Under the pieces are notes generated by a model. That model ran no database searches. It was given only the letters and a program-made list of their open reading frames with translations, and had not been told where the DNA came from. This document shows positions 1 to 39,320 of a stretch of DNA of 64,000 nucleotides, piece after piece. This stretch comes from Thermodesulfobacteriota bacterium. GTDB lineage: Bacteria > Desulfobacterota > Desulfarculia > JACQYL01. The translations under genes were made by a program, and so were the position numbers. Numbering within the stretch: the stretch's first letter is position 1; every line of letters starts with the position of its first letter. Location: positions 3,296,001 to 3,360,000 of the forward strand of contig CAXXLZ010000002.1 in the NCBI GenBank assembly GCA_963675595.2. Direction: 5' to 3'.

Positions 1-210
1 AATCGACCGGTGTGGTTTCAAGGTATGAGCATTCACATCAAAGACTTCGCTCCGCGATCCAAAAGAGGAATGCCCCAGCGGGACCACGTCGCGGTGATTA
101 TCAAACGGGATCGGGGTATTTGGCTCTACATCGCCGGCACGGTGCTGTTTACCTTGGGATTGCTCATGTATTTCCATGAATGGGTTCGAAAAAGGCAAGG
201 GAAGTGGTGA
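1..210 (+). CDS. 3' end of a ResB-like membrane protein (5' truncated by window edge)
   Basis: Frame open from base 1: NRPVWFQGMSIHIKDF...IIKRDRGIWLYIAGTVLFTLGLLMY, resembling the ResB C-terminal N-x-P...D-x-G plus TM helix pattern; TGA overlaps the next ATG. Confidence 0.5.
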   Translation, partial: NRPVWFQGMSIHIKDFAPRSKRGMPQRDHVAVIIKRDRGIWLYIAGTVLFTLGLLMYFHEWVRKRQGKW

Positions 211-1337
211 TGAAGAGACTCAACAGAATGATCGGATGGTGCTTGCCCGTCGTCTGCCTGACGTTGCTGACGCTGTGCGGTTGCCTGCAAGGTCGGCAGG
301 AAGGCGAAGGCTTCATCAACGTGGGGGAATTTACAGTCAAATCCCTCGACAACGGCTTGAAAGAACTGAGGGACGGACAGGGGCGCCGACTGGTTCTCGT
401 ACCCAGGGGTCAACAGGCCCCCCAAGGCTTTCGCAAGGAGGAGATCGTTCCCATACCCGTTCGTCGCGTGGTTGCCTATTCCACTCAGGAAGTGGCCATG
501 TTTCGAGCTTTGGGAGTGTTGGATACGCTCGTGGGCGTCACCACCAGGAAATGCGATTGGACGATGCGAGAAGTGGCTCGCGGGATGGAGGAAGGGAGAA
601 TCTCCTACCTCGGCGATTCCACTTCGGTGGACCTGGAGCGTTTGAAAGCCGCTCGTCCCGAAGTCGTTTTCACTTGGGACCAGAGTGTTGTCCCCATGCT
701 CGAAACCATGAACATTCCAGCGGTGATCACCTACACCGGCAGGGCCATGGACCTCGAGACGCGAGTTCGATTCATCCAATTCCTCGCGCCGTTTTTCGGA
801 AAAGAACGGGAAGCCGATCGTTTCGTAAAAACCGTTTTGGAGACCATTGCTGAGATTCGCCGAAAAACGGCCGACGTCAAACACAGGCCCAAAGTGATTT
901 GGGGGGATATCTACGAAAAACGGGTGATGGTGGAGCCGGGGAATTCATGGGTGGCGGAAATGATCAAGCTCGCCGGAGGAGACTATTTGTTCGAGGACAT
1001 CGGCGGCAGCCATTGACTGGAAATCACACTGGAAAGGTTTCTTTCCAGCGGAACCCGGGCGGATGTCTTCTTCACCTATCGAACGCCCCAATTCGGAGTG
1101 TCGTCCAAGGACGCCATCATGAGCATCAATCCCTTGATCAGAAATATCGCGCCCCTCAACCCCGCGGGTGAAACCTTTTCACCCTATCCGCTGTACGCGC
1201 AGTCCGGAGACGAACTGGCCGACGTCATCCGGGAAGTGGCTTCGATCCTTCATCCGGAGCTTTTCCGGCGGGAAAGAATCAAGTACTTCAGACGGCTTCC
1301 GCAGGAAGACCCCATGGATCGGACGGCGAGGAGATAA
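210..1337 (+). CDS. ABC transporter substrate-binding lipoprotein (BtuF/FecB class) with in-frame TGA at 1014-1016, probable selenocysteine (U269)
   Basis: ORFs 180..1016 and 1098..1337 share a frame; read-through gives ...EDIGGSH-U-LEITLERFLSSGTRADVFFTYR...ILHPELF; lipobox-like LTLCGC; IPVRRVV and DLERLKAARPEVVF motifs; stop overlaps the permease ATG. Confidence 0.85.
1014..1048 (+). promoter_or_regulatory. Putative bacterial SECIS element of the binding-protein gene
   Basis: TGA, 12 nt, then perfect 8-bp stem CTGGAAAG (1029-1036)/CTTTCCAG (1041-1048) with GTTT loop starting 20 nt after the TGA. Confidence 0.75.
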
Positions 1338-2359: not shown

Positions 2360-3597
2360 CCCGTCCCGTTCCAAGAACTCGGGTCATTGAAACGCGCAAC
2401 CTGGCCGTGGGTTACGGACCAAAGGTCGTTCTCGACCATTTGAACGTTCATGTGGACGAAGGCAGTTTCGTAAGTCTCCTGGGACCCAACGGAGCGGGGA
2501 AGACCACGTTTCTCCGGACTCTGGCGCGCCTACTCCCGGTAATCAAAGGCAGCGTGTTCATTCGGGGAAAGGAGTTGGAGCTCTACTCGGCATCCGAACT
2601 GGCCAGGCGCCTTTCCGTTGTGCTCACGAACCGGGTGTCCCCCGGACTGTTCACCGCCTTTGAATTCGCGGCGCTCGGCCGCTATCCGCACACGGGGTTT
2701 TTGGGAAAGTTGAGCGACGCGGACCGAGACGTCACCCGGCATTGCCTGAAACTCGTTCATGCGGAAGACTTGGCGGAGCGGCGTCTGGATACCCTCAGCG
2801 ACGGTGAGCGGCAGAAAATCCTGGTGGCCCGCGCACTGGCCCAGGAGCCCAAGATCATCCTGCTGGACGAACCCACCCTGCATCTGGACCTGAAACACCG
2901 GATCGAATTGATGGCCATCCTGCAGCGCCTTTGCCGGGATGAGGGTATCTCGGTGGTGGCCTCGCTTCACGACGTTGATATCGCCGCGAAAGTTTCCGAC
3001 CAAGTGGGATTGATCAAAGGAGGAACCTTGATCCGGTGGGGTGCTCCGGAAGATGTTCTTCAGGAAGACGCGGTAGCGTCTTTGTACGACTTCAACGGCG
3101 CAAGTTTCAATCGCCGGCTGGGGAGCATCGAACTAAAGGGCGGCGGGGGGCGACAACGGGTTTGCGTGATCGCGGGAATGGGCAGCGGCGCGGTCTTGTA
3201 TCGTCTCTTGGCCAAACGGGGATACGTCTTGTCCACGGGAGTGCTCCCCTCCAACGACGTGGATGCCTACGTGGCCGCTTCCCTTAGCGCGGAGTGCGTG
3301 ACCAACTCGCCCATGGAAGCGATTTCCGATGAAGCGTTCCGGAAAACGAAGGAGCATATTCTGGAAGCCGATTTCGTTATCGACGCCGGCTTCGAGGTGG
3401 GCTCTTTGAACGAAAGAAACGTGGAACTGCTTCGGTTCGCCATGGAACAGAACAAGCCGGTTTACGGGCGATTGCCCGAGGGCGGCGTCGTTCCGCATCG
3501 GAACGGGGTGAGCTCCCGCATACCGTTCTATGCTTCGGAGCATGAGTTGATTGAAGAGGTGGAGGCGGCTCTTGCCCGAAGAAGGCCGGAGGCATGA
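2356..3597 (+). CDS. ABC transporter ATP-binding protein (FepC/BtuD-like) with about 150-aa C-terminal extension
   Basis: Walker A GPNGAGKTT, signature LSDGERQ, Walker B ILLDEPT, H-loop SLHD; ATG at 2356 overlaps permease stop (ORF track start 1960 is too far upstream). Confidence 0.92.
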   Translation: MTRPVPRTRVIETRNLAVGYGPKVVLDHLNVHVDEGSFVSLLGPNGAGKTTFLRTLARLLPVIKGSVFIRGKELELYSASELARRLSVVLTNRVSPGLFTAFEFAALGRYPHTGFLGKLSDADRDVTRHCLKLVHAEDLAERRLDTLSDGERQKILVARALAQEPKIILLDEPTLHLDLKHRIELMAILQRLCRDEGISVVASLHDVDIAAKVSDQVGLIKGGTLIRWGAPEDVLQEDAVASLYDFNGASFNRRLGSIELKGGGGRQRVCVIAGMGSGAVLYRLLAKRGYVLSTGVLPSNDVDAYVAASLSAECVTNSPMEAISDEAFRKTKEHILEADFVIDAGFEVGSLNERNVELLRFAMEQNKPVYGRLPEGGVVPHRNGVSSRIPFYASEHELIEEVEAALARRRPEA

Positions 3598-3679
3598 TGC
3601 GGTTTGCCTTTTTCTGGACGTCTCCCGATGCCGGCTGTTCGGTGCTCGGTGGAGGCTTTCGACATTGCAGGGAAGAGTG

Positions 3680-5689
3680 ATGAACGGAAATCAGGGTTTT
3701 CCCTTTTCGGCCATTGTCGGCCAGGAGAATTATAAGCTCGCCCTGATCCTCAATGCGGTCAACCCTCGGGTGGGGGGCGTGCTCATCCGAGGGGAAAAGG
3801 GCACCGCCAAGTCAACGGCGGTCAGGGCTCTGGCGGACCTGCTTCCGCGGGTCGAGGTGGTGGAAGGGTGCGCTTATGCGTGCGATCCCGGACGGCCCGA
3901 GGAACTCTGCGAATCCTGCGAAAGGCTGGGAGGGTCGATGCCGACGAGGCTGAAACGAAGGCCGGTGGTGACGCTGCCTCTGAATGCCACGGAGGATCGC
4001 GTCGCCGGGGGTATCGACTTCGATTCGGCCGTCAGGCAGGGCGTGCGGGTGCTTCAGCCCGGGCTGCTGGCCAGGGCGCACCGGGGGATTCTTTACGTGG
4101 ATGAAGTGAACCTGCTGGACGATCATCTGGTGGACATCATCCTGGATGCGGCGGCTTCCGGAGAAAACAGGATCGAAAGGGAGGGCGTCTCCCATCGCCA
4201 TCCGTCCCGTTTCATTCTGGTGGGAACCATGAATCCCGAGGAAGGCGAACTGCGTCCTCAACTGCTCGACCGTTTCGGCCTCTGCGTGGAAGTGACCGGG
4301 GAGCAAGACATCGAGAAACGTATGGAACTCATGAAACTCCGGGAGGAATTCGATTCCGATCCGAAGGGGTTCGTCCAGCGTTTCGCCGAGGAAAACAGGG
4401 AGATCGCCGCCCGCATTGATCGGGCCTGTGCCGCGCTGGAAACCGTAAGAATGGCCAAGCACCTCCGTTCCTTCATCGGTGAGCTCTGTGGGGAAAACCA
4501 TGTGGCCGGGCATCGCGCGGATTTGGTCGTCGAACAGGCGGCCAGGGCTTTGGCTGCTTATATGGGGCGCGGCGAAGTCACCGTGGAGGACATTCAGGAA
4601 GTGGCGCCCATGGCCCTGATGCATCGAAAGCGGGATGTCGCCCCACCACCTCCGCCTCCTCCGCCCGAGCCCGAAGACCGGCCTCCGGACCAAGGGGAAG
4701 CCGAGTCCGGGAAGGAACAGCAAGAGGAGCCGTCTGAAAAGACACCGTCGGAGGAGGAGAATGAAGCGCTTCCGCCCCAAGACTTGCCTCCGCCTGATCC
4801 GGGCGAGAAAGAGCGGGACCGAGAGGGGGAACAAGACGTTTTGGAGCGGATTTTTGAGGTGGGGGCCACCTTCAAGGTGAGAAGCTTCCAGGCGCGAAAG
4901 GATCGCCTCCTGCGGCGAGGTTCCGGCAGACGTTCCCGTTCCCGGGTATCGCAGAAACAGGGTCGCTACGTAAGAAGCACGAACCGGGAAATCAACGGAG
5001 ACATCGCATTGGACGCCACGCTTCGGGCGGCGGCGCCCCACCAGCTCAGGCGCAGAGGAGAAAGCGATCTGGCGGTATGCCTGCGCCCGGATGACATACG
5101 GGAAAAGATTCGGGAAAAACGTATCGGCAATTTCCTGCTCTTTCTGGTGGACGCCAGCGGTTCCATGGGGGCCAGAGGCCGGATGGCCGCATCCAAGGGA
5201 GCCATCATGTCCTTGCTGCTGGATGCTTATCAGAAGCGGGACCAGGTGGCCATGGTTTCATTCAGAAAGCGGGAAGCGGTGCTGAACCTACCTCCCACCT
5301 CCTCCGTTGAAATGGCCGGAAAGCTCCTGGAAGAAATGCCCGTGGGGGGGCGGACTCCTTTGGCTGCGGGCCTGGTAAAGGCATACGAAGTCCTGAGAAG
5401 CCGGCTTCTGAAAGACCCGTCGTCCAGACCTTTTGTAATCGTCATCACCGACGGAAAAGCCAATGCGGGGCTCGGTGAAGGGAGCCCGTTGGATGAAGCC
5501 TTCGCTTTGGCGAGCCGATTGGCGCTGGATGAAAGGCTCCATTTCATCGTGGTCGATACGGAAGAGGAAAACGTGGTTTCCTTCGGCCTTGCCCGCAAAC
5601 TGGCCATGATTCTGAGAGGGAGCTATTTCAGGATCGAAGACCTCAAAGCGGAGAACCTGGTGGAAATCATCAAAGGAAAGGCTGCATGA
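3680..5689 (+). CDS. Chelatase ChlD/BchD-like subunit (AAA+ domain, Pro/acidic linker, VWA domain)
   Basis: [47 protein letters not shown]; poly-Pro linker; MIDAS motif VDASGSM; ITDGKAN. Confidence 0.93.
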
Positions 5690-6732
5690 AGAAGGGACCC
5701 ATTTACCCGTTTACCGCCATTGTAGGCCAGGAAAAGATGAAGCTGGCCCTTATTCTCAATGTGATCAATCCGACCCTGTCGGGAGTGCTGATTCGCGGCG
5801 AAAAGGGCACGGCCAAGTCCACCGCGGTGCGCGCACTGGCCGAGATTCTGCCGGAAATCCAGGTGGTCGAGAACAATCCGTTTCAATTGTCTCCCGAAGA
5901 GGTTCGCGAACAGGAAGGGGACCTGTTCCAAGTGGCCGGGCGCGAGCAACCGGCGTCCGACGGAAGACCCGCAACGATCCGACGGAAGGTCAGGGTGGTG
6001 GAACTACCCGTGGGCGCCACGGAAGACCGCGTTGTCGGCACCCTGGACCTGGAACACGCCCTCAAGAAGGGAGAGAAGCGGATCGAACCGGGTATCCTGG
6101 CCTCCGCTCACCGTGGGATTCTTTATGTGGACGAAGTGAACCTGTTGGACGATCACGTGGTGGACGTCTTGCTGGATTCGGCGGCCATGGGAGTCAACAC
6201 CATCGAGCGCGAGGGCGTTTCTTTTTCGCATCCGGCTCGATTCACATTGGTCGGCACCATGAATCCCGAAGAAGGCGAACTGCGGCCCCAGCTTCTGGAC
6301 CGTTTCGGCTTGTGCGTCCATATCGAGGGCATCCACGAGCTGGAAAGTCGCGTGGAAATCATGGAACGTCGCGCCGCATTCGAGGAAGACCCGGAACGAT
6401 TCGTGGAAAGATGGGCTCCGGCCTCACGGGAACTCACCGAAAGAATTCAACGGGCCGGCGAACTTTATCCTCAGGTGGAAATGGATCGGTCTCATTTGAG
6501 TGAAATCGCCCGCTACTGCTTGGACGTGGGCGTGGACGGTCATCGGGGCGATATCGTCATTCTCAAGACGTCCAAGACCCTGGCTGCTTATCACGGAAGG
6601 ACCCGGGTGGAAGAGGAGGACATCGGGCAGGCCGCGGAACTCGCCTTGCCCCATCGGATTCGCCGTCAACCGCTCCAGGACGTCGTGTTCGACGTGCGCG
6701 GCATGCAGCCCGCTGGGGGAGGCGTCGTGTGA
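5686..6732 (+). CDS. Chelatase ChlI/BchI-like AAA+ subunit
   Basis: [50 protein letters not shown]; ATGA overlap with upstream gene. Confidence 0.93.
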
Positions 6733-6873: not shown

Positions 6874-7998
6874 TTGAAGATGAAGGGCGACACGCGCAAA
6901 GAGGAATTCGCACCCCGGTATCTGGTGTTGTTCGTAACCACGGCGTGTAATCTGCAATGTCCCTATTGCTACGCAGACGACCTACGGGCAAAGAAGCCGA
7001 TGCCGTGGGAGGTGGCGGAGGCCGCTCTCAACCGGGTTGCGCACGGCGGCTTTCCGTTTCATGTGCAGTTGACCGGCGGTGAACCCACGTTGGAACCGGT
7101 TCTGGTCGAGAAGATCGCGTCTTGGTTGCGTTCCCGGCGACTACCGGCAAAAGTGGCTCTTCAAACGAACGGCACATGCTTGGACGAAGGGCTGGTCCGG
7201 ATTCTTCAAGAAAGAGAAGTCCAAATCGGTGTAAGTATCGACGGGTCTCCCTCGGTCCACGATCGCATTAGAGGCGGCGTTGTCGGGACGCTGAAAGGAC
7301 TGGACCTGCTGAGTCGCATGGGGGTCCCTTTCCGCACGACAACGGTGGTCACCCAAAGGAATGCGGCCGTCCTGGACCAGCCGGCGCTGATGCTCGCACG
7401 ATATCCGAATTTGCAGGGTATGGCTCTGGACTTGCCGGTACGTAAAGGGCGCATGATTTCAAGGGGCGAAGCGCTCTGTTGCGATCCGGAGTCTCTGGCT
7501 GCCGGCGTTGCCAAGCTGGTGAAGACCATCGACAGACTGAACGGGACCCGCCGACACCCTATTTCGCTGAGAGAATGGGAGAGGCTGCGTTCGTCGAGAA
7601 GAGAGGCGGCCCCAACGGACTATTGCCATGCATGCCGGGGCGAAAGCATGGCGGTTTTGCCGGACGGGTCCGTTTATCCCTGTTCCCAGACAGCCGGGGA
7701 TCCGGCGCTGCAATCGGGCCGGATCGACCGATGGGAATCGGTCCGACCGCGGATGCTCGGGAGGCGCAGTCTCCGTGAGGTTGCCGGGGAGGATTGCAGG
7801 ACCTGTATTGCGGAGCCTTTCTGTCCCGATGATTGTCCAAGCCGATTGCGCTACAACGACCCGCCGACCATCAAATCGGCGTGCGTTCTCTATCGCACGA
7901 TTGTCTCGTTGAGGGCCGGCGGAAGAGACGACGGCGAAGCGTGGACTTCGAAGGACGGTTCGTTCCGACGGGCGGCCCTGGATAAGGGCGACGGGTGA
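6874..7998 (+). CDS. Radical SAM protein with C-terminal SPASM/twitch-like Cys cluster
   Basis: CNLQCPYC, TGGEP, QTNG, VSIDG; C-terminal CHAC...DGSVYPC...CRTC...FCPDDCP...C. Confidence 0.9.
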   Translation: MKMKGDTRKEEFAPRYLVLFVTTACNLQCPYCYADDLRAKKPMPWEVAEAALNRVAHGGFPFHVQLTGGEPTLEPVLVEKIASWLRSRRLPAKVALQTNGTCLDEGLVRILQEREVQIGVSIDGSPSVHDRIRGGVVGTLKGLDLLSRMGVPFRTTTVVTQRNAAVLDQPALMLARYPNLQGMALDLPVRKGRMISRGEALCCDPESLAAGVAKLVKTIDRLNGTRRHPISLREWERLRSSRREAAPTDYCHACRGESMAVLPDGSVYPCSQTAGDPALQSGRIDRWESVRPRMLGRRSLREVAGEDCRTCIAEPFCPDDCPSRLRYNDPPTIKSACVLYRTIVSLRAGGRDDGEAWTSKDGSFRRAALDKGDG

Positions 7999-8111
7999 TG
8001 AGTCGGGAGAGTCCGCAACCGTTCGTCGAACGTTCGTTCTTCCTCGACTTCACAGCGAAGAAGGCGCCGTCGCGGTGAGTCGACTCCTCAAACCAATGTG
8101 AGGTGTCTCCT

Positions 8112-11100
8112 ATGAATCCTTACAGATTGTGCTACTTTTCGGCGACCGCTCTCGAGATTCCGTCCCTGAGAAGAGGACTGGACCTGTATCTGACGGATGG
8201 AGGGCGGGTCCGGGTCACCGCTCGCACCAACAACCAGCTTTTCGATGAAGCGCGGATCAAGGCTTTTGTCAAAGACGCCATGAAATCGGATGCGGTGATC
8301 GTCGTGCTGCACGGCGGCAAGGCGTCATGCGCGGCTTTCGACGCGCTGATAGCGGAATTTTCGGACCCCAAACGCAACGGAAGCAAAGCGCCTTACCTGC
8401 ACATTAAAGCGGATGTCGGCGATGAGGAAGGATTGTTCCTGGCCGGGGAGTATTCCGCGGAATTCGGTACCGAGAACTGGGACATCATATCCAGCTACGT
8501 TTCTTACGGCGGCCCGGTGAACTTTCGCCAGCTTTTCAGGTTCCTCGGCAACATCGTCGCGGACGACGACGTCGGTTGCGTGCCTCCCGAGCCGACGCCG
8601 GGAGAAGGGATTTATCATCCCGATGTCGCGGGCGTTCCTTCTTTGGACGAGTACCTGAAAGCCAAAGTGGATCCCTCGAAAATCACCGTGGGACTCTGGT
8701 TCTATCACTCCTATTGGATCAACAACAACCTCGAGCATATCAATGCCTTGATCAAGGAAGTCGAGAGCCGGGGGGCCAATGTCATCGCCGTTTTTCACCG
8801 AAGGTTCAAGGATGAGTCCTTGGGCACTCGAGGGGCCGATTACGTGGTGGATCATTTTTTTATGGAAAACGGGACGCCCCGAATCGATGCACTCATCAAT
8901 CCCATGAATTTTTCCCTTTCTCTTTTCTCACCGGAGTATGAAGGGTTGCTGGAGCGCCTGGATGTGCCCGTGATCCAGGCCCTGACCACGAGTCAACCCT
9001 ACGAGGTCTGGAAGGCCGGCGTCCAGGGCATGTCGAGCATGGAAGTCTCTTACGCGGCGGCTCAGCCCGAATTCGACGGAGCGTTGATCTCCGTGCCGGT
9101 GAGCACGCGGGAAGAAAATGAGACGGACCCGTTCACCGGCGCCCTGTTGTCCCGTATGGTTCCCATTCCCGATAGGGTTCGAAAGGTGGTTTCTCTGGCG
9201 CTCAACTGGGCCAAACTGAGAAAGAAAAGTCCGGACGGAAAGAAGATCGCCGTTATTTTTCACAACTATCCCCCCAGGAACGACCGCATCGGGTGCGCCG
9301 CAGGCCTGGACAGCTTCGAGAGCGTCAAACTGCTCCTGGATCGTATGAAGGAACAGGGGTACGTGGTTGAACAAACCTACGAGAACGGCGATGAATTGGC
9401 GCAAGAGATGGTCGAACGAATGACCTGCGACCAAAGATGGCTCACACCGGAACGGATGTCGGAAAAGGCGGAGGCGCGTGCCGGTCGAGAAGGTTATCTT
9501 CCTTGGCATGCGGCTCTTCCCGACGGAGTCCGATCGAAAATGCGGGAGGATTGGGGGGAGGTCCCCGGGGATCTCTTCGTCTACCGGGATGAAATGATGT
9601 TTCCGGGCATGATCAACGGGAACATTTTTCTTACCATTCAGCCTCCCAGGGGATACCTGGAAAACGTGGATAAGATTTATCATGACCTCTACCTCTCCCC
9701 GCCTCACCACTACCTGGCTCAGTATCGTTGGATCAGGGACGTATTCCGGGCGGACGCCGTGATGCATGTGGGCAAGCACGGGTCTCTGGAATGGCTTCCG
9801 GGCAAAGCGTTGGGCTTGAGCGAGGAGTGCTTTCCCGATCTCTCCATCATGGATTTGCCCAACGTTTATCCCTACATCATCAACGATCCGAGCGAAGGAA
9901 CTCAGGCCAAGCGCCGTTCCTATTGCTGTATCATCGACCACCTGACCCCGGTCTTTTCCAATGCCGATCTCTACGAGGACCTGACTCAGGTGGAATCCGC
10001 GTTGAAGGATTATGAAGACGCCGTTCGGGAGAACCCCGGCAAGCTCGACGTTTTGCGTCCCATGCTCTGGGAAGCCGTGGTCAAAGCGGATCTGGACAAG
10101 GATTTGGAAATGAACGAGGAATCCGCTTTCGCGGATTTCGAGAAGTTCCGGGAACAACTGCACGGTTACCTATCCGAACTGCGCGATACCATGATCAACG
10201 ACGGACTTCACATCATGGGAACGGCCCCTCGAGATGACCGCCTGGTGGAATTCCTCACGCAACTCACCCGACTCCCCAATGGAGCCGTCCCTTCCTTGAG
10301 GGAGGCTCTTGTCGCATATAAAGGATATGACTACGACGAGTTGCTCGAGAACCGGGGAAGCCGGTTCGCCGGTTCCGGCGATAAGACCGGAGGCATGTTG
10401 ATCGGTGAGGTCCATGAGCTGGCTCTGGAGCTGGTGGGCGGGCTGTCTTCCGAAGATTACGATCCGGAGCGGGCTTCCGCGGCGGTGGAGTCGGTATTGG
10501 GGAGGAGCGTTCCGGAAGTCCTGGAAATCGCGGACTACATTTGCCGGAATCTCGTTCCCGACATTCGTCGCGTGTCGGATGAGATCGATGCGAGTCTGCG
10601 GGCTTTCCAGGGTCGGTTCGTGCCGCCGGGACCTTCGGGCGCTCCCACCAGGGGGCAGGCGGACATTCTTCCCACGGGCCGCAATTTCTTTTCGGTGGAC
10701 CCCTCCAAGATTCCGACTCCCGGGGCCTGGGAGGTGGGCATAAGGCTCGGCGACGCTTTGATCGATCGATGCTTGCAGGAAAACGGAGAATATCCCGAAG
10801 GGATCGGCATTGTTTTGTGGGGCGGGGCCACCATGCGCTCCAAGGGAGACGATCTTGCCGAAATTCTCTACCTCATGGGGGTGAAGCCCGTATGGCAAAA
10901 GGGGAGCGGTCGGGTGACCGGGGTTGAGGTGATTCCCGTGTCGGAACTCAAACGCCCCAGATTGGATGTGACGCCTCGCATTTCGGGTTTTTTTCGAGAC
11001 GCGTTTCCCAACCTGGTGGAATTGATGGACGATGCGGTGCGCATGGTCGCCGCTCTCAAAGAACCTTTCGAATGCAACATGCTTCGGAGGAACGTGCTTC

Positions 11101-11885
11101 GGGATGTGGAATCTTACAGAAGCCAAGGCTTGAACGGGGAGGACGCATTCCGGGAAGCTACTTTTCGGATTTTCGGGTGTCCGCCGGGAACCTACGGCGC
11201 CGGAGTGGAGGAGCTGATTGAATCCAAGAACTGGAAGACTCAGGACGATCTGGCGGACAATTACATCCGGTATTCGGCCCATGCCTACGGTCGGAATTCC
11301 TATGGGAAGCACAATCCCGAAACGTTCAGGCGAGTTCTGTCCCGCATGGAGGTGACGGTGAAGAACGAGGATTCCAGGGAATACGATATGCTTTCGTGCA
11401 CCGACTTCTACAACTATTACGGTGGATTGATCGCTGCCGCCAAGTCGGTTCGGGGTGAGTTGCCGTTTGCCCTGGCCGGAGACGCGTCGGACCCCGGGCG
11501 GATTCTGATGCGCACTACCATGGAAGAGACCAAGCACGTGTTGAGGGCGCGGCTGGTCAATCCCAAATGGCTGGAGGGGATGAAGCGGCATGGTTTTAAA
11601 GGGGCGGGCGATATATCCAAAATGATGGACGTGGTTCTGGGATGGGACGCCACCGCCGAAGTCATGGAAGACTGGATGTACGAGCGGATGGCGCAACAAT
11701 ACGCTTTGGACCCGGACATGCGGCAATGGATGAAGGAAGTGAATCCCTATGCTCTTCAAAACATTCTGGATAAACTGCTGGAAGCCATCAGTCGGGGGAT
11801 GTGGAATGCCGGTGATGAGATGGAAGCGGAACTTCGAAACGCGTATCTTGAAATCGAAGGCCAAATTGAAGAGATCACCGAATAG
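8112..11885 (+). CDS. cobN: CobN/ChlH-family chelatase large subunit
   Basis: QPEFDG, HNYPP, PPHHYLA, HVGKHGSLEWLPGK, IIDHLTP, LPTGRNF, RISGFFRD, RLVNPKW motifs; GAGGTG RBS before ATG 8112. Confidence 0.93.
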   Translation: MNPYRLCYFSATALEIPSLRRGLDLYLTDGGRVRVTARTNNQLFDEARIKAFVKDAMKSDAVIVVLHGGKASCAAFDALIAEFSDPKRNGSKAPYLHIKADVGDEEGLFLAGEYSAEFGTENWDIISSYVSYGGPVNFRQLFRFLGNIVADDDVGCVPPEPTPGEGIYHPDVAGVPSLDEYLKAKVDPSKITVGLWFYHSYWINNNLEHINALIKEVESRGANVIAVFHRRFKDESLGTRGADYVVDHFFMENGTPRIDALINPMNFSLSLFSPEYEGLLERLDVPVIQALTTSQPYEVWKAGVQGMSSMEVSYAAAQPEFDGALISVPVSTREENETDPFTGALLSRMVPIPDRVRKVVSLALNWAKLRKKSPDGKKIAVIFHNYPPRNDRIGCAAGLDSFESVKLLLDRMKEQGYVVEQTYENGDELAQEMVERMTCDQRWLTPERMSEKAEARAGREGYLPWHAALPDGVRSKMREDWGEVPGDLFVYRDEMMFPGMINGNIFLTIQPPRGYLENVDKIYHDLYLSPPHHYLAQYRWIRDVFRADAVMHVGKHGSLEWLPGKALGLSEECFPDLSIMDLPNVYPYIINDPSEGTQAKRRSYCCIIDHLTPVFSNADLYEDLTQVESALKDYEDAVRENPGKLDVLRPMLWEAVVKADLDKDLEMNEESAFADFEKFREQLHGYLSELRDTMINDGLHIMGTAPRDDRLVEFLTQLTRLPNGAVPSLREALVAYKGYDYDELLENRGSRFAGSGDKTGGMLIGEVHELALELVGGLSSEDYDPERASAAVESVLGRSVPEVLEIADYICRNLVPDIRRVSDEIDASLRAFQGRFVPPGPSGAPTRGQADILPTGRNFFSVDPSKIPTPGAWEVGIRLGDALIDRCLQENGEYPEGIGIVLWGGATMRSKGDDLAEILYLMGVKPVWQKGSGRVTGVEVIPVSELKRPRLDVTPRISGFFRDAFPNLVELMDDAVRMVAALKEPFECNMLRRNVLRDVESYRSQGLNGEDAFREATFRIFGCPPGTYGAGVEELIESKNWKTQDDLADNYIRYSAHAYGRNSYGKHNPETFRRVLSRMEVTVKNEDSREYDMLSCTDFYNYYGGLIAAAKSVRGELPFALAGDASDPGRILMRTTMEETKHVLRARLVNPKWLEGMKRHGFKGAGDISKMMDVVLGWDATAEVMEDWMYERMAQQYALDPDMRQWMKEVNPYALQNILDKLLEAISRGMWNAGDEMEAELRNAYLEIEGQIEEITE

Positions 11886-11892
11886 TTCGGAA

Positions 11893-13791
11893 GTGAACTC
11901 CACCAACGGTGGAAGCGGCTGCAAACCGGTCCGTATCCCGGTGTTGTTGTGGGCGGTGATTTTCCTTTTCGTCGCCGGAGCTCACGCGCAGCAAGGCGGC
12001 GGGTCTTCTTCGGACCGTGAGTATCAACTGGAGTCCATCAAGGTGGTTGCGGATGCCATCGAGGAATTCGTCCAAGCCCACCCGGAGTCCGTAACGGTCC
12101 TCGACCGTGCGGAGATTGAACTGCGTAATTTCGGGGACCTTGGAGAAGCCGTTGCGAGCGTGCCGGGAGTCGAAGTGCGCAAAAGAGCGGGCAATTTAGG
12201 TACCCGAGTCATCATTCGAGGGGGGAGCGCCAACGGCGTGCTGGTGCTCATCGACGGCAAACCGGTTAACTCGACTCAGTTCGGAGCCGTGGACCTCGAA
12301 AGCCTGCCTCTGGAAATGGTCGAGAAAATCATGGTGTTCAAACCTCCGGTCCCCGTTGATCTCGGCCCCGGGGCATCGGGGGGCGCGGTGAACATCATTA
12401 CTCGGGTCAAAAAGAAGAGGCCGGTTGCCCGGACCAAGGCTCGGGTGGAGGGCGGGTCCTTCGGTACGGTTTCCGGAAGCGCCACGAGAATTCAGCCGCT
12501 GGGCGAGGATCAGTTTTTTGTGACGGCCGGGGGCGGCCATACCGACGGGAAGAGAACCAACAGCGACAACACCAAAGGGAATTTCAGCGCTCAGTGGCGG
12601 CGTGAGCTGGAAGGGTCCGACTCCCTGGACATCACCGGCCGCTATTACGGGGTCGAACGGGGCGCTTCGGGACCTCTGGACAACCCGACCCCGGACGCGA
12701 GGCAGAGCTATCATCACGCCTCTCTGGGATTGGATTACGATGGTATGTGGGAGGGGGCCGGCCCCTTTACCATCAAGGGCTACGGAGATTTTGAGCATCT
12801 AAACGATAAGACCCAGTTCGGTGACGACAGCGTTCTGAAGGTCTACAAGATCGGCACCAAGAACGAATTTACGTGGCCTCCCGATCAGGACTATTTCTTC
12901 AAGTTCGGCGCCTCCGCCGAGGGCAATTTCGTGGATCACACGGAGACCGGGTACCATGACCGGGGGAGGACGTCGCTTTACACCGAGTACCGCCGTGAAT
13001 GGAAACCCTGGACCTTCATGCTGGGAGTGAGAGGCGATTACACGAGCGATTTCGCCTTTCACCCCGGAGCTCAGGGAGGGGTGAGTCTGGCTCTCGGTCC
13101 CCGCACCGTGTTGCGGGGAAACGCGGGTTATGCCGTAGAAATACCCACCTTCGCACAACTCTACCAGCCCACCCACGGCAGCGCCGACCAGGTCCGTGGA
13201 AACCCGGACCTCAATGAGGAACGCTCCGTTTCCGTGGATATCGGGATCGAGCACGTGTGGTCGGAAATGCTCAGCATGGCATTGAGCGTTTTCCGCACGG
13301 ACACTTTCGATTACATTACCTCGGTGAGGGGCGACGATAAGATTTACCGCGGCGTCAATCTGGACCATGCCTCGCGACAGGGGGTCGAGGTGTCGGCCAA
13401 ATCCAGAATCAACGAATCCGTCACCCTTCGGTTCGACTATGTGTTTCTGGACACCAGAAATCACGATACGGATAAGGAATTGATTTACGCCGCCAAGCAC
13501 ACGATCAAAGGGTCCGGTACGTTCATCCTTCCCTTGGGCGTTCGTCTGGAACCGGAAGTCGCCTACGTGAGCGCGCGATTCGCGGACCTGGAGAATTCCG
13601 ACGGGCAGCGCCTCGGTGGATACACCAAGGTGAACTGCAAGGCCACCCTGCCTTTCGAAATGGGTCGATACAAAGCGGAAGCCTTTGTTTCGGTCTATAA
13701 TCTCCTCGACCATGACTTTTCCGTCCACTTCGGATATCCTGACGACGGCTTTCGAGTCATGGGAGGGCTGCAACTCGAGTTCGGCCCCTAA
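11893..13791 (+). CDS. TonB-dependent outer-membrane receptor (BtuB/heme-receptor-like)
   Basis: Signal peptide; TonB-box-like ESIKVVA; plug motifs VPGV, IRGG, VLIDG, GGAVNIIT; GNPDLNEE; NLLD; near-terminal Phe; start approximate. Confidence 0.9.
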   Translation: MNSTNGGSGCKPVRIPVLLWAVIFLFVAGAHAQQGGGSSSDREYQLESIKVVADAIEEFVQAHPESVTVLDRAEIELRNFGDLGEAVASVPGVEVRKRAGNLGTRVIIRGGSANGVLVLIDGKPVNSTQFGAVDLESLPLEMVEKIMVFKPPVPVDLGPGASGGAVNIITRVKKKRPVARTKARVEGGSFGTVSGSATRIQPLGEDQFFVTAGGGHTDGKRTNSDNTKGNFSAQWRRELEGSDSLDITGRYYGVERGASGPLDNPTPDARQSYHHASLGLDYDGMWEGAGPFTIKGYGDFEHLNDKTQFGDDSVLKVYKIGTKNEFTWPPDQDYFFKFGASAEGNFVDHTETGYHDRGRTSLYTEYRREWKPWTFMLGVRGDYTSDFAFHPGAQGGVSLALGPRTVLRGNAGYAVEIPTFAQLYQPTHGSADQVRGNPDLNEERSVSVDIGIEHVWSEMLSMALSVFRTDTFDYITSVRGDDKIYRGVNLDHASRQGVEVSAKSRINESVTLRFDYVFLDTRNHDTDKELIYAAKHTIKGSGTFILPLGVRLEPEVAYVSARFADLENSDGQRLGGYTKVNCKATLPFEMGRYKAEAFVSVYNLLDHDFSVHFGYPDDGFRVMGGLQLEFGP

Positions 13792-13914
13792 CAGGCTGCG
13801 CAAAAACGCGATCTGCTGCGTTGCGCTTCGTCCCTCGTCACTGCGACGTACTTTATGTACGTCTCATTCCTCGGGATTTGCGCGCCTTGCATCACATCGT
13901 TTTTTCGCAGCCTG
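13792..13914. repeat. 123-bp MITE/REP-like element with terminal inverted repeats
   Basis: Left CAGGCTGCGCAAAAACG and right CGTTTTTTCGCAGCCTG are 16/17 complementary; internal CCTCGTCACTGCGACG recurs at 49911 and, with one mismatch, at 63325. Confidence 0.75.
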
Positions 13915-13968
13915 CGGCAACCGGCCCTTTTCAGCGGGATGCCGGTGTTTGACCGGTCCGGACGCATT

Positions 13969-13994
13969 CCGGGAAGGGCGAGCCCCGGCTCGGC
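13969..13994 (+). repeat. Dispersed REP-like copy related to the repeats around the RAYT at 54 kb
   Basis: CCGGGAAGGGCGAGCCCCGGCTCGGC versus CCGGGAGCGCCGAGCCCCAGCTCGGC at 54054. Confidence 0.55.
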
Positions 13995-14160
13995 TCATCG
14001 ACGAAAGAAGCTGATGCGCGTTGGTGATGTTTGGAAGTTCGCCATGGGCGCTTCGTTCCAATATGGCGGTATCGGACCGACGGGAGGCCGTGCCGAGCGC
14101 CATGGGCGGTTTCCACGCGGTTGTGTGATCAACCTTGAAGCGGAAGAATAGGAAGAGCGC

Positions 14161-15123
14161 TTGATACGAATTGAAGGGCTGACGAAACGCTACGGGAACA
14201 TCACGGCGCTGAACGGCTTGGACCTCCATGTGCGGCAGGGGGAGTTCTTCGGGTTTCTGGGGCCCAACGGGGCGGGCAAGACCACCACCATCAGGATACT
14301 GACCACTCTGACCCTGCCCGATGGCGGTAAGGCCTGGATCGCCGGTCATGAAATATCGGCGCAACCCCTGGCGGCCAAATCCCGGACGGGGGTGGTGCCC
14401 CAAAGCATCAACCTGGATCAGGAGCTCACCGCCGGAGAAAACCTGGAAGTACACGGCCTCTTGTATAATATGTCCGCCTCGGATCGAAAGAAGAAGATTG
14501 GACAAGTCCTGGCTGAAACCGGTCTCACCGACCGGATCGAGAGTCAGGTACGAACTTTCTCGGGAGGGATGAAACGTCGCTTGATGATCGCCCGAGCACT
14601 GATGCACGAACCTTCGGTTCTCTTTTTGGACGAGCCCACCGTGGGCCTGGACCCTTCGGTGAAAAGAAGGCTTTGGGCACTGCTCAAGCAGATCAATCGA
14701 GGGGGAGCGACCATTTTTCTGACCACCCATTACATCGACGAGGCCGAGGCTCTTTGCGACCGTGTCGGCATCATCCATCACGGGAAACTCATCGCTCTGG
14801 ATACGCCCGCGAACCTGATCCGCAGCGCCGGAACTCACGTGGCCGACGTGTTCGAAGACGATACCATGACCACGCATTTCTTCGATTCGAGGGAAAGCGC
14901 GAGCTCCTTCGCTTCCACCCAGTCCCTGCCGGTGATGATCCGCAACTGCAACCTGGAAGACGTATTCGTGAAACTCACCGGTGAACAGATTCAGCCCGAA
15001 CGCCAGGTCCGGACTTCCCGGGAACACGGGGCTTCAGGCCACGGGAGCGCCCACGGCGGTTCCGGCACCGGGCACTCGAGCCATGGACAACACGGGCATG
15101 CATCGGGCCGTTCATCCCATTGA
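14161..15123 (+). CDS. ABC-2 exporter ATP-binding protein (DrrA/NodI-like) with His/Gly/Ser-rich tail
   Basis: GPNGAGKTT, FSGGMKRR, FLDEPTVGLD, TTHY; tail EHGASGHGSAHGGSGTGHSSHGQHGHASGRSSH. Confidence 0.9.
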   Translation: MIRIEGLTKRYGNITALNGLDLHVRQGEFFGFLGPNGAGKTTTIRILTTLTLPDGGKAWIAGHEISAQPLAAKSRTGVVPQSINLDQELTAGENLEVHGLLYNMSASDRKKKIGQVLAETGLTDRIESQVRTFSGGMKRRLMIARALMHEPSVLFLDEPTVGLDPSVKRRLWALLKQINRGGATIFLTTHYIDEAEALCDRVGIIHHGKLIALDTPANLIRSAGTHVADVFEDDTMTTHFFDSRESASSFASTQSLPVMIRNCNLEDVFVKLTGEQIQPERQVRTSREHGASGHGSAHGGSGTGHSSHGQHGHASGRSSH

Positions 15124-15267
15124 AGCCCCGGACGAGATTAGGGTGAAGGGTTTTCAAGAACGTTTTTCCCCGTGATCCTTTTCATAGTCGATGCACCCTG
15201 CCTCGCCGGCGGAGGCGGTGTTGAAAGTGTTCCTTTGTCGCCGGCCTGAGACGGATGGGAGTGTTGT

Positions 15268-16002
15268 ATGCGAGGCTACTTGGCCGTGCTCAAGCGGGAC
15301 CTGTTCATTCTCAAGCACCGGTTCTTCAAAGTCGTTCTTTCCCTGGCCGTTTCTCCGGTTCTGTTCCTCATCGCCTTTGGATGGGGAATCGGGAGGAGCC
15401 TGGATGTGGAGGGAGTTTCCTACATTCTGTTCATGGTTCCCGGATTGATCGCCATGAGCAGCATGTCCCAATCCTTCGGAATCGCCGTGGACATCAATGT
15501 GGCGCGGTTTTATTGGCACATCTTCGAAGAATTCCAGGCCGCGCCGGTGAGTGATTTCGCCATCGCGGCGGCGGAAGTGACCTACGGCATTCTCAAAGGT
15601 TTTCTGTCCGCCGCGGTCATCCTGATTCTGGCCTCCTTGGTGGGAACCCGCGTGTCCGTCAACCCGGGTTTCGTTTCGGCCGTGTTCGCCAACTGTTTCT
15701 GCTTCGCATCCCTGGCATTCATTGCCGCCATGGTGGTCAAGTCGCACGCGGACCAATCCGTGATCGCCAACTTCATTATCACCCCCATGGCCTTTCTGTG
15801 CGGAACGTTCTTTTCCTTGAAGGCGCTTCCGGCCTGGGCCTTCCACATCATCAACGTGTTGCCTCTCACCCAATCCACCAAAGCCATCCGCGCGTCCGCT
15901 CTGGGACGGGAATTCCCCTTTGCCGCCTTCTCCTATACGCTGGCCCTCGGCGCGATCTTCTTCACCATCGCCGTATTCATGGTGAGGCGGTCGAGGCAAT
16001 AA
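15268..16002 (+). CDS. ABC-2 type exporter permease
   Basis: YILFMVPGLIAM, APVS, PMAFLCGTFF, LPLT; about six TM helices; follows the ATPase. Confidence 0.9.
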   Translation: MRGYLAVLKRDLFILKHRFFKVVLSLAVSPVLFLIAFGWGIGRSLDVEGVSYILFMVPGLIAMSSMSQSFGIAVDINVARFYWHIFEEFQAAPVSDFAIAAAEVTYGILKGFLSAAVILILASLVGTRVSVNPGFVSAVFANCFCFASLAFIAAMVVKSHADQSVIANFIITPMAFLCGTFFSLKALPAWAFHIINVLPLTQSTKAIRASALGREFPFAAFSYTLALGAIFFTIAVFMVRRSRQ

Positions 16003-16227
16003 CTCGGAACTCCTGCATTGCCGGTCAAGAGCGATTTTTCAAAGCGGAGATCACTCGTCCGACGGTCGGAACGACTCCCACCCTTTCCGCTGGTTTCGCC
16101 TCTACTCCCTAGTTTTTCCAGGACCTTTTCAAGCCGGCAAGAGGGTGAACCATACCGGAGAAGTCCGCCTTCGGCGGACAACCCCGGATATTCATGAGTT
16201 ATGCGGCTGCGCTCCGAGGCTTTGCCG

Positions 16228-16932
16228 TTACGGTTTCCACACTTCCCAGACCTTGCCCACCAAATCGGGGCCCGGGGTCAGGGTGACCTGGCCGGGCTGC
16301 CATCCGGAAGGCGTCACCTCTCCCGTCTCCACCACGTGACGGAAGGCCTTGAGCTGTCGGAGCAATTCCGCGGGGCTCCGACCGACCTCGGGAGTCAGCA
16401 CTTCCATGGCGCGGATCACGAAATCGGGATCGATGATGAAACGGCCTCGGATATCCACGCCGGCCGCTTCGTCGTATACGCCGTAGATGGTGCCGATGGC
16501 CCCGCCGGCATCCGACAGCATGGGGAAGGGGACCCCTCCGGGCACCATTTTCGAGAGTTCCTCCTGCTGCCAGATCTTGTGCACGAAACGGCTGTCCGTG
16601 CTCATGGCCAGCACCTGGGCGTCCAACGCCTCGAACTCTTTGTACAGGGCGGCGACCGCCGCCAGCTCGGTGGGTCAGACAAAGGTAAAATCACCGGGAT
16701 AGAAACACAATACGATCCATTTGCCTTTGTGGTCCGACAGCTTGATCTGGTCGAACCCGACGCCTTCGATGTATCCGTTGGCCTCAAAATCAATCGCTTC
16801 CCGGCCTACGCGTGCCTGCATCTTCTGTTCCTCCTGTACCGCGGCCGTCCCGCCGGCCGGGGCGTCCGATTGGGGTTTGGGGGCCAGCACCCCGCGAGCG
16901 GGTTTGACGCAACCGTCCTTCTGTTTCGCCAT
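16228..16932 (-). CDS. prxU: Selenocysteine-containing peroxiredoxin (AhpC/PrxU type), TGA at 16677-16675 (U86)
   Basis: ORFs 16675..17016 and 16228..16626 join in frame as [19 protein letters not shown], the peroxidatic site; [12 protein letters not shown]; AAGGAG RBS before ATG 16932. Confidence 0.93.
16648..16677 (-). promoter_or_regulatory. Putative SECIS of the peroxiredoxin
   Basis: TGA CCCACCGAGCT GGCGGC-GGTC-GCCGCC; loop 17 nt after the TGA. Confidence 0.75.
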
Positions 16933-17312
16933 TCGCTTCTCCTTTTGGGGTTGGTGGTTGAGTGGAGTGTGAAAAAAGACCGAGCCCATGCGATCCATGG
17001 GCGAACTTTCCTTCACGCGGAACAGTCCGGGCCGTTCCGAATATCGGATTCAGTATAGAACATTTTTGCGATGGGAAGGTTACAGAAGTATCGGAAAAAT
17101 CACTGTGAACGCCGGGCGAGTTGTCGTCTTTCGGTGTTGCGGGGTATTTTTTGTATGGTTTCCCGCCGGAGTTGCGTCCGCAGGTTCATCATCACCCGTC
17201 GGCAACCAACGGACTTTTGGGGAAACGACGGATAAGAAGAGGAACGCCGGGCATGTTATCGGCGAGTGAATTCGCAAGGGGGGGACAGGTCGTGGAGGGA
17301 CAAACGTGTGGG

Positions 17313-38714: not shown

Positions 38715-39320
38715 ATGGAAATGCTGGATTGTATGGGACTGGCCTGCCCCAGCCCCGTCATCAAAACCAAGGACTTACTGGAATCGAAAAATCCCGACAC
38801 CCTCGAAGTGCTGGTGGACAACGAGGCGGCGAGTCAGAACGTTTCGAGGTTTCTTAAAACCAAGGGATTCGAAGTTCGGGTGCGCACCCAAAACGGCGGG
38901 TTTGCGGTGGAAGGGTCCCGACAGCAGGGGGAAGAGACCGCGGCCTGCGAGATCATGGACTTCGAAGCTCCGATGCTTCAGGATGCCCGAACCCTGGTCA
39001 TGGTGGCCACGGACCACATCGGTTCCGGAGACGACGTCCTGGGCGGCAAACTGATGCTCTCCTTCATTTCCACGCTCAAGGAGATGGAGGGGCTTTGGCG
39101 CTTGGTGCTCGTGAACAACGGCGTCAAATTGTCCATCGAGGGAGCGGAAACCCTCGGCGCCATCCAAGAGCTGGAGGCCTCCGGCGTGAGCGTCCTGGTG
39201 TGCGGCACCTGCCTCACGTTCTTCGATCTGCTGGATAGGAAACGAGTGGGAGAAACCACCAACATGCTGGATATCGTGACTTCCATGCAGGTAGCCGGCA
39301 AGGTGATTACCTTCGGCTAG
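38715..39320 (+). CDS. yedF: Selenium metabolism protein YedF (TusA-like plus DsrE-like domains)
   Basis: LDCMGLACPSPV, CGTCL, GETTNMLDIV; directly upstream of selD. Confidence 0.88.
   Translation: MEMLDCMGLACPSPVIKTKDLLESKNPDTLEVLVDNEAASQNVSRFLKTKGFEVRVRTQNGGFAVEGSRQQGEETAACEIMDFEAPMLQDARTLVMVATDHIGSGDDVLGGKLMLSFISTLKEMEGLWRLVLVNNGVKLSIEGAETLGAIQELEASGVSVLVCGTCLTFFDLLDRKRVGETTNMLDIVTSMQVAGKVITFG

Follow-up and report, generated by a model that had tools for sequence, protein, structure and literature searches.

A probable selenocysteine-containing substrate-binding lipoprotein in a cobalamin-riboswitch operon type of Thermodesulfobacteriota

A lipoprotein gene interrupted by one TGA

Why would the gene for a transporter's substrate-binding lipoprotein carry a stop codon inside its ligand-binding domain, and what might the protein bind if that codon were read as an amino acid? 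The question is raised by a gene at positions 210-1337 (+ strand) of a 64,000-nt stretch of contig CAXXLZ010000002.1 (assembly GCA_963675595.2, positions 3,296,001 to 3,360,000) from a Thermodesulfobacteriota bacterium. We call this stretch the window; coordinates with the prefix C2 count along the contig and unprefixed ones along the window. Translated with TGA as selenocysteine (Sec, U), the gene encodes a substrate-binding protein (SBP) of 375 aa with U269. A preliminary description had reported an in-frame TGA at 1014-1016, 106 further codons up to a stop overlapping the permease ATG, and a perfect 8-bp hairpin, and all of these sequence statements hold. The ATG at 210 is in frame with the TGA, which stands in the context GGSH-U-LEITLERF, and the 106 open codons end at TAA 1335-1337, overlapping the permease ATG at 1337-1339.

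The protein begins with a signal peptide and a lipobox, L-x-G-C, ending at Cys25 (210-284, + strand, read from the sequence); Cys25 is at least 90% conserved in two homologue alignments (A1 and A2), with G at −1. Pfam family PF01497 matches residues 87-292 (E 2.1e-18, 67 bits against a cut-off of 27.5), and since the match lies on both sides of the TGA, a single domain spans it. The first start codon downstream of the TGA is a GTG at 1098. An NCBIfam scan of the protein returned only IsdE and SstD, far under their cut-offs, and matched no BtuF model; release 20 of that collection has no model for this SBP family.

The TGA in relatives

A homologue search in a large protein collection gave 431 matches, the best 117 full-length of which were aligned with the query. 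The U269 column holds Cys in all 117, inside a conserved G-[ST]-[SA]-C-[IV]-E-I block, and the two closest protein matches, at 77% and 74% identity, have 268 residues and end at the same site. Truncation there is common: 53 of the best 120 matches to the N-terminal fragment have at most 300 residues, and 52 of these 53 end exactly at the Sec site. The NCBI names of two such entries are generic, for example 'ABC transporter substrate-binding protein' for MCK5507978.1.

At the DNA level, an orthologue at E ≤ 1e-80 was found in 29 of 95 genomes of the window's class. The homologous codon is TGA in five of these genomes, the window's own (G000) included, and TGC or TGT in every other class orthologue whose DNA was read (12, loci L004-L017); 12 further matches lie outside the DNA reading. 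The 21 closest loci in species-representative genomes have TGA in 16 cases and TGT or TGC in five, and the 17 distinct stop-bearing relatives from the protein search (duplicates removed) always use TGA, never TAA or TAG. The combination of TGA and hairpin was also found in 21 further metagenome contigs, all in the same gene and frame, which speak to prevalence only, having been selected by that very pattern.

Past the TGA the frame continues to evolve as protein. Among 37 pairs of Sec forms the differences at codon positions 1/2/3 number 318/214/1046 downstream of the TGA and 219/146/464 upstream, a pattern as coding-like after the codon as before it, which argues for coding constraint past the UGA. 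The downstream part aligns with the C-terminal lobe (C-lobe) of the Cys homologues. A sequencing miscall, which the preliminary description had named as a risk, is contradicted by contigs from three other studies: those of P2 and P3 cover 700-1400 and show 3 and 8 differences, all outside 1014-1016, and a 151-nt contig from P4 (916-1066) covers the TGA with zero differences. Two pieces from run X1 overlap at 992-1017, none listed spans 700-1400, and this run was not used as evidence.

Sec forms of the family carry the motif G-x-x-U-[LIM]-E; its counterpart in Cys forms is G-[ST]-[SA]-C. The pairing of Sec with a neighbouring His, which had been put forward as a possible ligand pair, does not extend to the family, His268 having been seen only in the window protein and its three closest relatives (P0003, P0004, L065); in the remaining Sec forms the residue before the Sec is S, T, A or G. 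A maximum-likelihood tree, quickly built from 30 Sec-form and 17 Cys-form sequences, shows five changes between the two states as found, at least three of them on well-supported branches; its Sec rows were enriched by the search route, and the tree is silent on how frequent either form is.

One Sec-form gene came from a 1022-nt contig labelled Methanocaldococcaceae (L037). Around the Sec codon it matches L030, labelled Desulfohalobiaceae, letter for letter, and on the tree the two proteins hardly differ. Mis-binning of a short, low-coverage contig probably accounts for the archaeal label.

The hairpin and the selenium machinery

A hairpin resembling a bacterial selenocysteine insertion sequence (SECIS) follows the TGA at 1027-1050 (+ strand) and was assessed by folding, conservation and covariation. 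Its stem pairs CTGGAAAG (1029-1036) with CTTTCCAG (1041-1048) over a perfect 8 bp, with a C1027-G1050 pair outside it. The stem lies 12 nt and the loop 20 nt downstream of the TGA, and the loop, GTTT (1037-1040), is the G-T-initiated one that had been described. In a nine-pair structure derived from the same sequences, which is a mark against it in that slid controls flatter it, standard pairs fill 97.4% of cells in 17 Sec forms and 65.4% in the same columns of 17 Cys forms. Two of its pairs, 30-39 and 32-37, covary in the Sec forms: the former is AU in 12 and GC in 5 with none unpaired, and the latter, which closes the loop, is GC in 8, GU in 3, AU in 2 and mismatched in the other 4. The genome also supplies its own controls. 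In selD and two fdhA-type genes the stem starts 15-16 nt from the U of the UGA, like that of the SBP gene, and the control and SBP hairpins have an apical stem of 6-8 bp and a loop that starts with G. The spacing and loop of the SBP hairpin agree with the consensus of known bacterial SECIS elements.

The machinery to decode such a codon is present. The genome has selA (538 bits), selB (a SelB wing domain at 79.5 bits in a 635-aa frame) and a tRNA-SeC(tca) found by ARAGORN, and SelA is encoded in four of four other Sec-form genomes of the window's class. The window itself holds selD (39626-40570, + strand), confirming an earlier observation; the plain list of open reading frames (ORFs) gives only its 314-aa part after a TGA, and selD is itself a selenoprotein gene, with an in-frame TGA at 39575-39577 (AAG-U-ASKIPP) and the hairpin CCTCCAG-GTGAT-CTGGAGG 12 nt past it. 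Directly upstream lies the YedF-like gene (201 aa, 38715-39320, + strand) that had likewise been noted, which begins with a CPxP-bearing TusA/SirA domain (PF01206, 65 bits). Elsewhere in the genome three molybdopterin-oxidoreductase genes have an in-frame TGA (C2:18810-20081, − strand; C2:3228833-3230104, + strand; C2:4120743-4122185, + strand), and the two of them inspected show an FdhA-type CAR(L/T)-U-H site and a SECIS-like hairpin.

Together these results leave us in little doubt, as far as sequence comparison can carry the point, that gene 210-1337 is a genuine selenoprotein gene whose UGA is predicted to be decoded as Sec. The proposal of a Sec-containing ABC substrate-binding lipoprotein with a bacterial SECIS has thus been supported by each of the proposed tests that was run: Cys at position 269 in the homologues, TGA and hairpin conserved in relatives, Sec genes in the genome, and the same codon in independent contigs.

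The genome also has a tRNA-Pyl (anticodon cta) at C2:125847-125918 and a gene for the PylS C-terminal domain at C2:161682-162401 (TIGR02367, 297.6 bits, above cut-off). With both present, it appears to use pyrrolysine beside selenocysteine.

A conserved operon and its cobalamin riboswitch

The SBP gene belongs to a gene cluster whose order, traced with tblastn, is CcsB-like, ResB-like, SBP, permease, ATPase, usually a radical SAM gene, and CobN; this order is kept in nearly all related loci, in Sec and Cys forms. Upstream, the CcsB-like gene (PF01578 family) lies at C2:3292734-3293525. The ResB-like membrane protein gene (191 aa; PF05140, E 4.3e-09) occupies C2:3295635-3296210 on the + strand, starting 365 nt before the window, so that its 3' end is window 1-210 and its stop overlaps the SBP start. 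Both proteins are small relatives of system II cytochrome c biogenesis proteins, which handle heme, and in the CcsB-like one a degenerate WWD-like stretch, AWSYLSTGYPVVWED, precedes an HLH.

Downstream and on the same strand come a FecCD/BtuC-type ABC permease (1337-2359; PF01032, E 3.3e-75), whose best NCBIfam match is the BtuC permease, under cut-off, and a 411-aa ABC ATPase with a C-terminal extension (2362-3597; PF00005), whose best is 'corrinoid ABC transporter ATPase' (NF007082, 230.7 bits, under the cut-off of 537). In the window's genome two chelatase subunit genes stand between the ATPase and radical SAM genes: a ChlD-like AAA+/VWA subunit (3677-5689, + strand), which exceeds the cut-off for a putative cobaltochelatase (TIGR02442, 805 bits over 779), and a ChlI-like AAA+ subunit (5686-6732, + strand; TIGR02030, 432 bits under 467; PF01078). 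The radical SAM/SPASM-like protein (6874-7998, + strand; PF04055) has sub-threshold NCBIfam matches only. The CobN-type large chelatase subunit (8103-11885, + strand; PF02514, 1318 bits) scores above cut-off as cobaltochelatase CobN (TIGR02257, 955.7 bits over 822). Just past it come five ORFs in a row (12196-17058; 200-387 aa) for which Pfam gave no match at E ≤ 0.001.

A cobalamin riboswitch (RF00174, 122 bits) lies at C2:3292399-3292579 (L023:10399-10579, + strand), about 3.4-3.6 kb before the window and about 150 nt upstream of the CcsB-like gene (L023:10734) on the same strand. A riboswitch of this family was also found upstream of the cluster in seven of nine other loci scanned, in Sec and Cys forms. 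Since a cobalamin riboswitch heads a conserved operon, we regard the operon as regulated by vitamin B12, and an operon so headed is probably a corrinoid or cobalt acquisition system. The preliminary description had the lipoprotein feeding a chelatase cluster; the chelatase genes are there, and the riboswitch refines that function to corrinoid or cobalt acquisition. In the window's genome an insertion sequence (IS)-type DDE transposase gene (569 aa; C2:3293879-3295588, L023:11879-13588, − strand) stands between the CcsB-like and ResB-like genes, which in other loci are about 300 nt apart.

The riboswitch is one of three within 8 kb. A second (L023:10040-10228, − strand) faces a divergent second CobN gene (L023:6107-9961, − strand) accompanied by a Gate-domain membrane protein, and a third (L023:3108-3290, + strand) precedes an unannotated 487-aa ORF (L023:3446-4909).

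Fold and position of residue 269

An AlphaFold (AF2) model built on a 118-row alignment has the fold of a class III SBP (mean predicted local distance difference test score, pLDDT, 89.5; predicted template modelling score 0.85), with a helix at 199-220 joining the two lobes. Foldseek gave 178 PDB matches at E ≤ 0.001, and those listed are class III SBPs, including the heme binders RhuT, ShuT, BhuT and PhuT, the siderophore binders CeuE, YiuA and HtsA, and BtuF (1n2z, E 2e-10). A profile search of PDB sequences gave weak matches only: 4ovk and 4ljs, both of unknown ligand, and ShuT (2r7a, E 4e-4).

To place residue 269 we aligned the protein to E. coli K-12 BtuF. BLASTP pairs residues 130-263 with BtuF 59-191 (E 2e-6), the last pairing being GGDYLFED with GGENIFKD. 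An L-INS-i alignment of 25 family members with BtuF sets E143 opposite E72, W156 opposite W85, D263 opposite D191, C269 opposite W196 and E275 opposite E202, and the spacing agrees, with six residues from U269 to E275 and six from W196 to E202. E72 and E202 are the docking glutamates of BtuF, one per lobe; the match of E143 to E72 was returned by three methods and that of E275 to E202 by L-INS-i only. A placement by mafft --add --keeplength, with C269 opposite an Arg, was set aside, this mode deleting inserted BtuF residues.

In BtuF, residues Y50, W66, W85, F162, F168 and W196 line the cavity, where they touch both cobinamide and cobalamin, and the corrin turns its β side towards the C-lobe (PMC5269720). 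The alignment thus gives moderate support for placing U269 at the Trp196 position, in a C-lobe loop, where it would form part of the cargo-pocket wall facing the β side of a corrin.

A second position varies with the first. Among the Cys forms, 128 of 134 have a second Cys, which is at position 181 in 121 and at 246 in seven (six have neither). In the 30 Sec forms position 181 is always Asp or Asn, and position 246 is never Cys. Position 181 is in a loop of the N-terminal lobe (N-lobe) that aligns with the D108-T110 region of BtuF. The pattern suggests that both lobes contribute to one site, comparable with SBPs that use their own residues to complete the coordination of a metal chelate; it is partly phylogenetic, the six partnerless Cys forms falling in a clade that also holds Sec forms.

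What the protein may bind, and how

The signs of recoding, the protein's fold, its operon and the riboswitch are shown; the cargo and the role of the Sec are inferred, as follows. The UGA at 1014-1016 would be decoded by SelB and tRNA-Sec, which the hairpin (1029-1048) would recruit. The product would be the lipid-anchored SBP of a BtuCD-type importer, capturing a corrinoid (probably incomplete or base-off) or a cobalt complex outside the cytoplasmic membrane. The selenolate of Sec269 would bind the cobalt of the cargo directly, as Cys does in BtuM, in a binding and not a redox role. The BtuCD-like importer would then take over the cargo, which would be processed inside the cell by the radical SAM enzyme and those of the cobaltochelatase type. 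In relatives the operon is probably turned on when cobamides are scarce. There is precedent for the chemistry: in BtuM a Cys is the axial ligand to the cobalt of base-off B12 (PMC6072759), and cobalt-sulfur coordination has been described in B12 chaperones (bioRxiv 10.1101/2023.07.25.550549; PMC12501144).

We put the probability of this explanation as a whole, a selenoprotein SBP of a corrinoid or cobalt importer with its Sec on the metal of the cargo, at roughly 0.55. Taken by itself, a Sec that is a direct ligand to the cargo's metal is plausible at somewhat less than even odds. The specific version, in which Sec is the axial cobalt ligand of a corrinoid in an extracytoplasmic SBP and the Co-Se bond serves capture and not redox catalysis, is offered tentatively and may well be wrong. 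A non-redox metal or tetrapyrrole ligand had already been suggested for this Sec; that suggestion keeps its tentative standing, to which the alignment of U269 with the BtuF cavity residue Trp196 can now be added.

A number of observations pull the other way. The 68-nt stretch around the hairpin (1008-1075), folded by itself, is not significantly stable (z = −1.17, with 27 of 200 shuffles folding equally well), so the weight of the hairpin comes from conservation, covariation and the in-genome controls. The peptide LERF(L/F)SSG dictates part of it, it persists at −15 kcal/mol in one Cys form (L010), and an Rfam scan of 900-1200 at E ≤ 10 returned a chance snoRNA match only and no SECIS family. 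The case for selenium in the protein is throughout one of comparing sequences. On the structural side, the Gly-rich loop running up to U269 (residues 261-270) has a mean pLDDT of 69, and the equation of U269 with W196 draws on one global alignment and a manual extension of the BLASTP match; hhalign of the family profile against BtuF gave a probability of 12% and covered the N-lobe and the start of the C-lobe only, and hmmalign left region 231-290 unaligned. One of the six aromatic cavity residues of BtuF is kept (W85 as W156), so the pocket differs; F162 aligns with P243, and W66 falls at S137/T138. The Foldseek neighbours include heme and siderophore binders beside BtuF; E-values for the three kinds differ by no more than one order of magnitude, so the cargo cannot be read off the fold. 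The CcsB-like and ResB-like neighbours come from heme-handling families. Finally, no riboswitch was found in the scanned stretches of L041 and L042, and with a transposase gene between the riboswitch and CcsB-like gene on one side and the ResB-like and SBP genes on the other, riboswitch control of the SBP and of the genes downstream of it is uncertain in the window's genome and may be broken.

The most basic alternative is that the TGA is a true stop, in a pseudogene, a split gene or an assembly error, leaving only a 268-aa N-terminal piece. Gene callers and NCBI records annotate it so, with 52 clusters ending there, but we give this very little credence: the same codon occurs in contigs of three other studies and is always TGA in 17 distinct diverged relatives, the downstream frame is constrained as coding sequence and aligns with the C-lobe of Cys homologues, that part has no start codon before GTG 1098, a half-domain SBP would be unable to close on a ligand, and the hairpin is conserved in a genome with the full Sec machinery. 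If the codon is read as Sec, the cargo could still be heme or another non-corrin tetrapyrrole with Sec or Cys as axial ligand, on which the CcsB/ResB-like proteins and CobN would act in the manner of HmuS, a CobN-type de-chelatase of Bacteroides that removes iron from heme (PMC12583661). RhuT, ShuT, BhuT and PhuT are among the top Foldseek matches, one of the PDB profile matches is ShuT (2r7a, E 4e-4), the weak NCBIfam match is IsdE, and the neighbours, of families PF01578 and PF05140, include a CcsB-like protein whose degenerate WWD-like stretch is followed by His residues. Against heme, the riboswitch found in eight of ten loci scanned (the window's included) points to B12, the CobN scores as a cobaltochelatase and is accompanied by ATP-dependent ChlI/ChlD subunits, and the Foldseek E-values do not discriminate between cargo classes; we consider a heme cargo improbable. 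Covalent heme attachment through a thioether, in cytochrome c style, was set aside separately, there being no CxxCH-like His and the operon being B12-regulated.

Closer to the corrinoid reading is a free or loosely chelated soft metal, Co2+ or possibly Ni2+, held on the selenolate and destined for the CobN/ChlID chelatase, with the thiol at 181 of the other lobe assisting in most Cys forms. A riboswitch suits a need for cobalt as well as for corrinoids, CobN and ChlD exceed cobaltochelatase cut-offs, and the second Cys of 128 of 134 Cys forms set beside Asp/Asn181 in all 30 Sec forms resembles a two-ligand site turned into Sec plus a carboxylate or amide. A PF01497-type SBP for cobalt has reportedly been found, CbtJ of Sinorhizobium. 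However, class III SBPs of this size usually take large chelates, the closest solved folds belong to binders of heme, siderophores or B12, the permease and ATPase have corrinoid/B12 transporters as their best family matches, and the 181/269 pattern is confounded by phylogeny, so that a free metal is unlikely in our judgement, if still a serious contender. Residue 269 might instead be catalytic or redox-active, either removing the upper ligand of a cobamide (decyanation or dealkylation) or forming with Cys181 a thiol/selenol switch that gates cargo release. The Cys of BtuM both ligates cobalt and mediates decyanation (PMC6072759), Sec does redox chemistry in most known selenoproteins (PMC9312934), and repeated interchange of Sec and Cys (at least three changes forced) is typical where Sec gives a kinetic advantage. 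Yet the family has no thioredoxin-like CxxC/CxxU motif, with Gly at position −3 in each of the 52 truncated clusters and in every Sec form seen; the operon encodes no redox partner except the radical SAM protein; and the second Cys is missing from all 30 Sec forms, so a selenenyl-sulfide switch between 181 and 269 cannot be general. We regard a redox or catalytic role as quite unlikely and keep a Sec that binds the metal of a corrinoid or cobalt complex as our explanation.

Significance

A further selenoprotein family would be unsurprising by itself. Sec serves redox chemistry in most characterised cases, and transport proteins with known or predicted Sec are few (PMC13188914). An extracytoplasmic Sec at the pocket of a B12-regulated importer would open a way to study non-redox Sec chemistry, and a connection of selenium with cobalt, by experiment. 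The SBP family is widespread in anaerobic sediment bacteria, and at least 52 protein clusters are cut short at the Sec codon; since gene calls end at the UGA, half of the protein, including the residue that probably contacts the cargo, is missing from annotation. The operon, with its CcsB/ResB-like, radical SAM and CobN genes, is an uncharacterised B12-regulated one.

If Sec does sit on the cobalt of a corrinoid, the selenium and cobalt/B12 economies of sulfidic habitats would be linked, and the family, with several switches inside one orthologous group, would be a test case for Sec replacing Cys in a binding site. A Co-Se bond would further mean that cobamide salvage is selenium-dependent in many sulfate-reducing Desulfobacterota, and that the CcsB/ResB-like pair represents a machine of the heme-handling type re-used for corrinoids. 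Our literature collection, which is incomplete, contained no paper linking such CcsB/ResB-like proteins to corrinoids, and none on this SBP family as a selenoprotein or on the CcsA/ResB operon type.

Comparison with known systems

The best-studied relative is E. coli BtuF, with which the SBP shares the class III fold, PF01497, a BtuC-like permease and ABC ATPase as partners, the docking glutamates (E143 for E72, E275 for E202), W156 for W85 and, by way of the riboswitch, a cobalamin-linked context. It differs in being only about 16% identical, in having an extra N-terminal β region (about 60 residues) and a lipid anchor, and in retaining none of five of the six aromatic cavity residues. BtuF gives cobalt no protein ligand, whereas the SBP family has an invariant Cys or Sec at the W196 position. 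In this respect it would resemble IsdE and CeuE, which are of the same fold family (CeuE through Foldseek, IsdE through a weak NCBIfam match) and in which a protein residue completes the coordination of the bound metal chelate. Those ligands are Met and His in IsdE and His and Tyr in CeuE, and the metal is iron.

The coordination chemistry proposed for U269/C269, a thiolate on the cobalt of a base-off corrinoid during B12 uptake, is that of BtuM, but BtuM has an unrelated fold, that of a membrane S-component-like protein, and is not an SBP. We know of no Sec form of BtuM. As an operon, the nearest described type is operon-2 of Dehalobacter restrictus, which has a cobalamin riboswitch, a Fep/Btu-type ABC transporter, CobN and Mg-chelatase-type subunits, and whose transcript rises 346-fold on corrinoid starvation (PMC4285132). 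It belongs to a Firmicute and includes CbiZ genes, and neither a CcsB/ResB-like pair nor a selenoprotein has been reported for it.

The preliminary description had cautioned that BtuF-like candidates might already stand in lists of selenoproteins, and rightly so: two reviews (PMC9312934, PMC13188914) give 'Cobalamin-binding protein BtuF (cd01144), motif CxxU' as a predicted selenoprotein. Both credit it to Peng et al. 2016, the main text of which omits it. That entry, too, is an SBP of the BtuF class with one predicted Sec, possibly from the same branch of the superfamily. Its motif does not fit our family, in which Gly occupies position −3 throughout (30 of 30 Sec forms, 52 of 52 truncated clusters), and its examples RUA21600.1 and MDE0719563.1 were not seen among the members read, which covered ten clusters with accessions for two members. 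Judged by the listed motif, the SBP family looks distinct from it.

Sec-bearing SBPs of transporters do have a described precedent in SaoB and SaoX of the SAO locus, before which Haft and Gwadz knew of no Sec SBP (bioRxiv 10.1101/2022.07.06.499078). Like our protein, these are extracytoplasmic SBPs of importers in anaerobes, with Sec where homologues have Cys, a Sec proposed as a metal ligand in the pocket, and database entries cut at the UGA. They belong to other SBP families, SaoB being remotely akin to amino-acid-type SBPs (3VVE) and having the motif CU; their NCBIfam models, NF040727 and NF040735, did not match our SBP at E ≤ 0.01, and it has no CU or UxP motif. The SBP operon lacks the MerB-like and double-cubane genes of the SAO operon, which in turn has neither riboswitch nor chelatase. 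The window's SBP therefore joins two known kinds, the Sec/Cys selenoprotein families and the Sec-bearing SBPs of transporters, and what is new here is the B12-riboswitch context and the pocket position of its predicted Sec.

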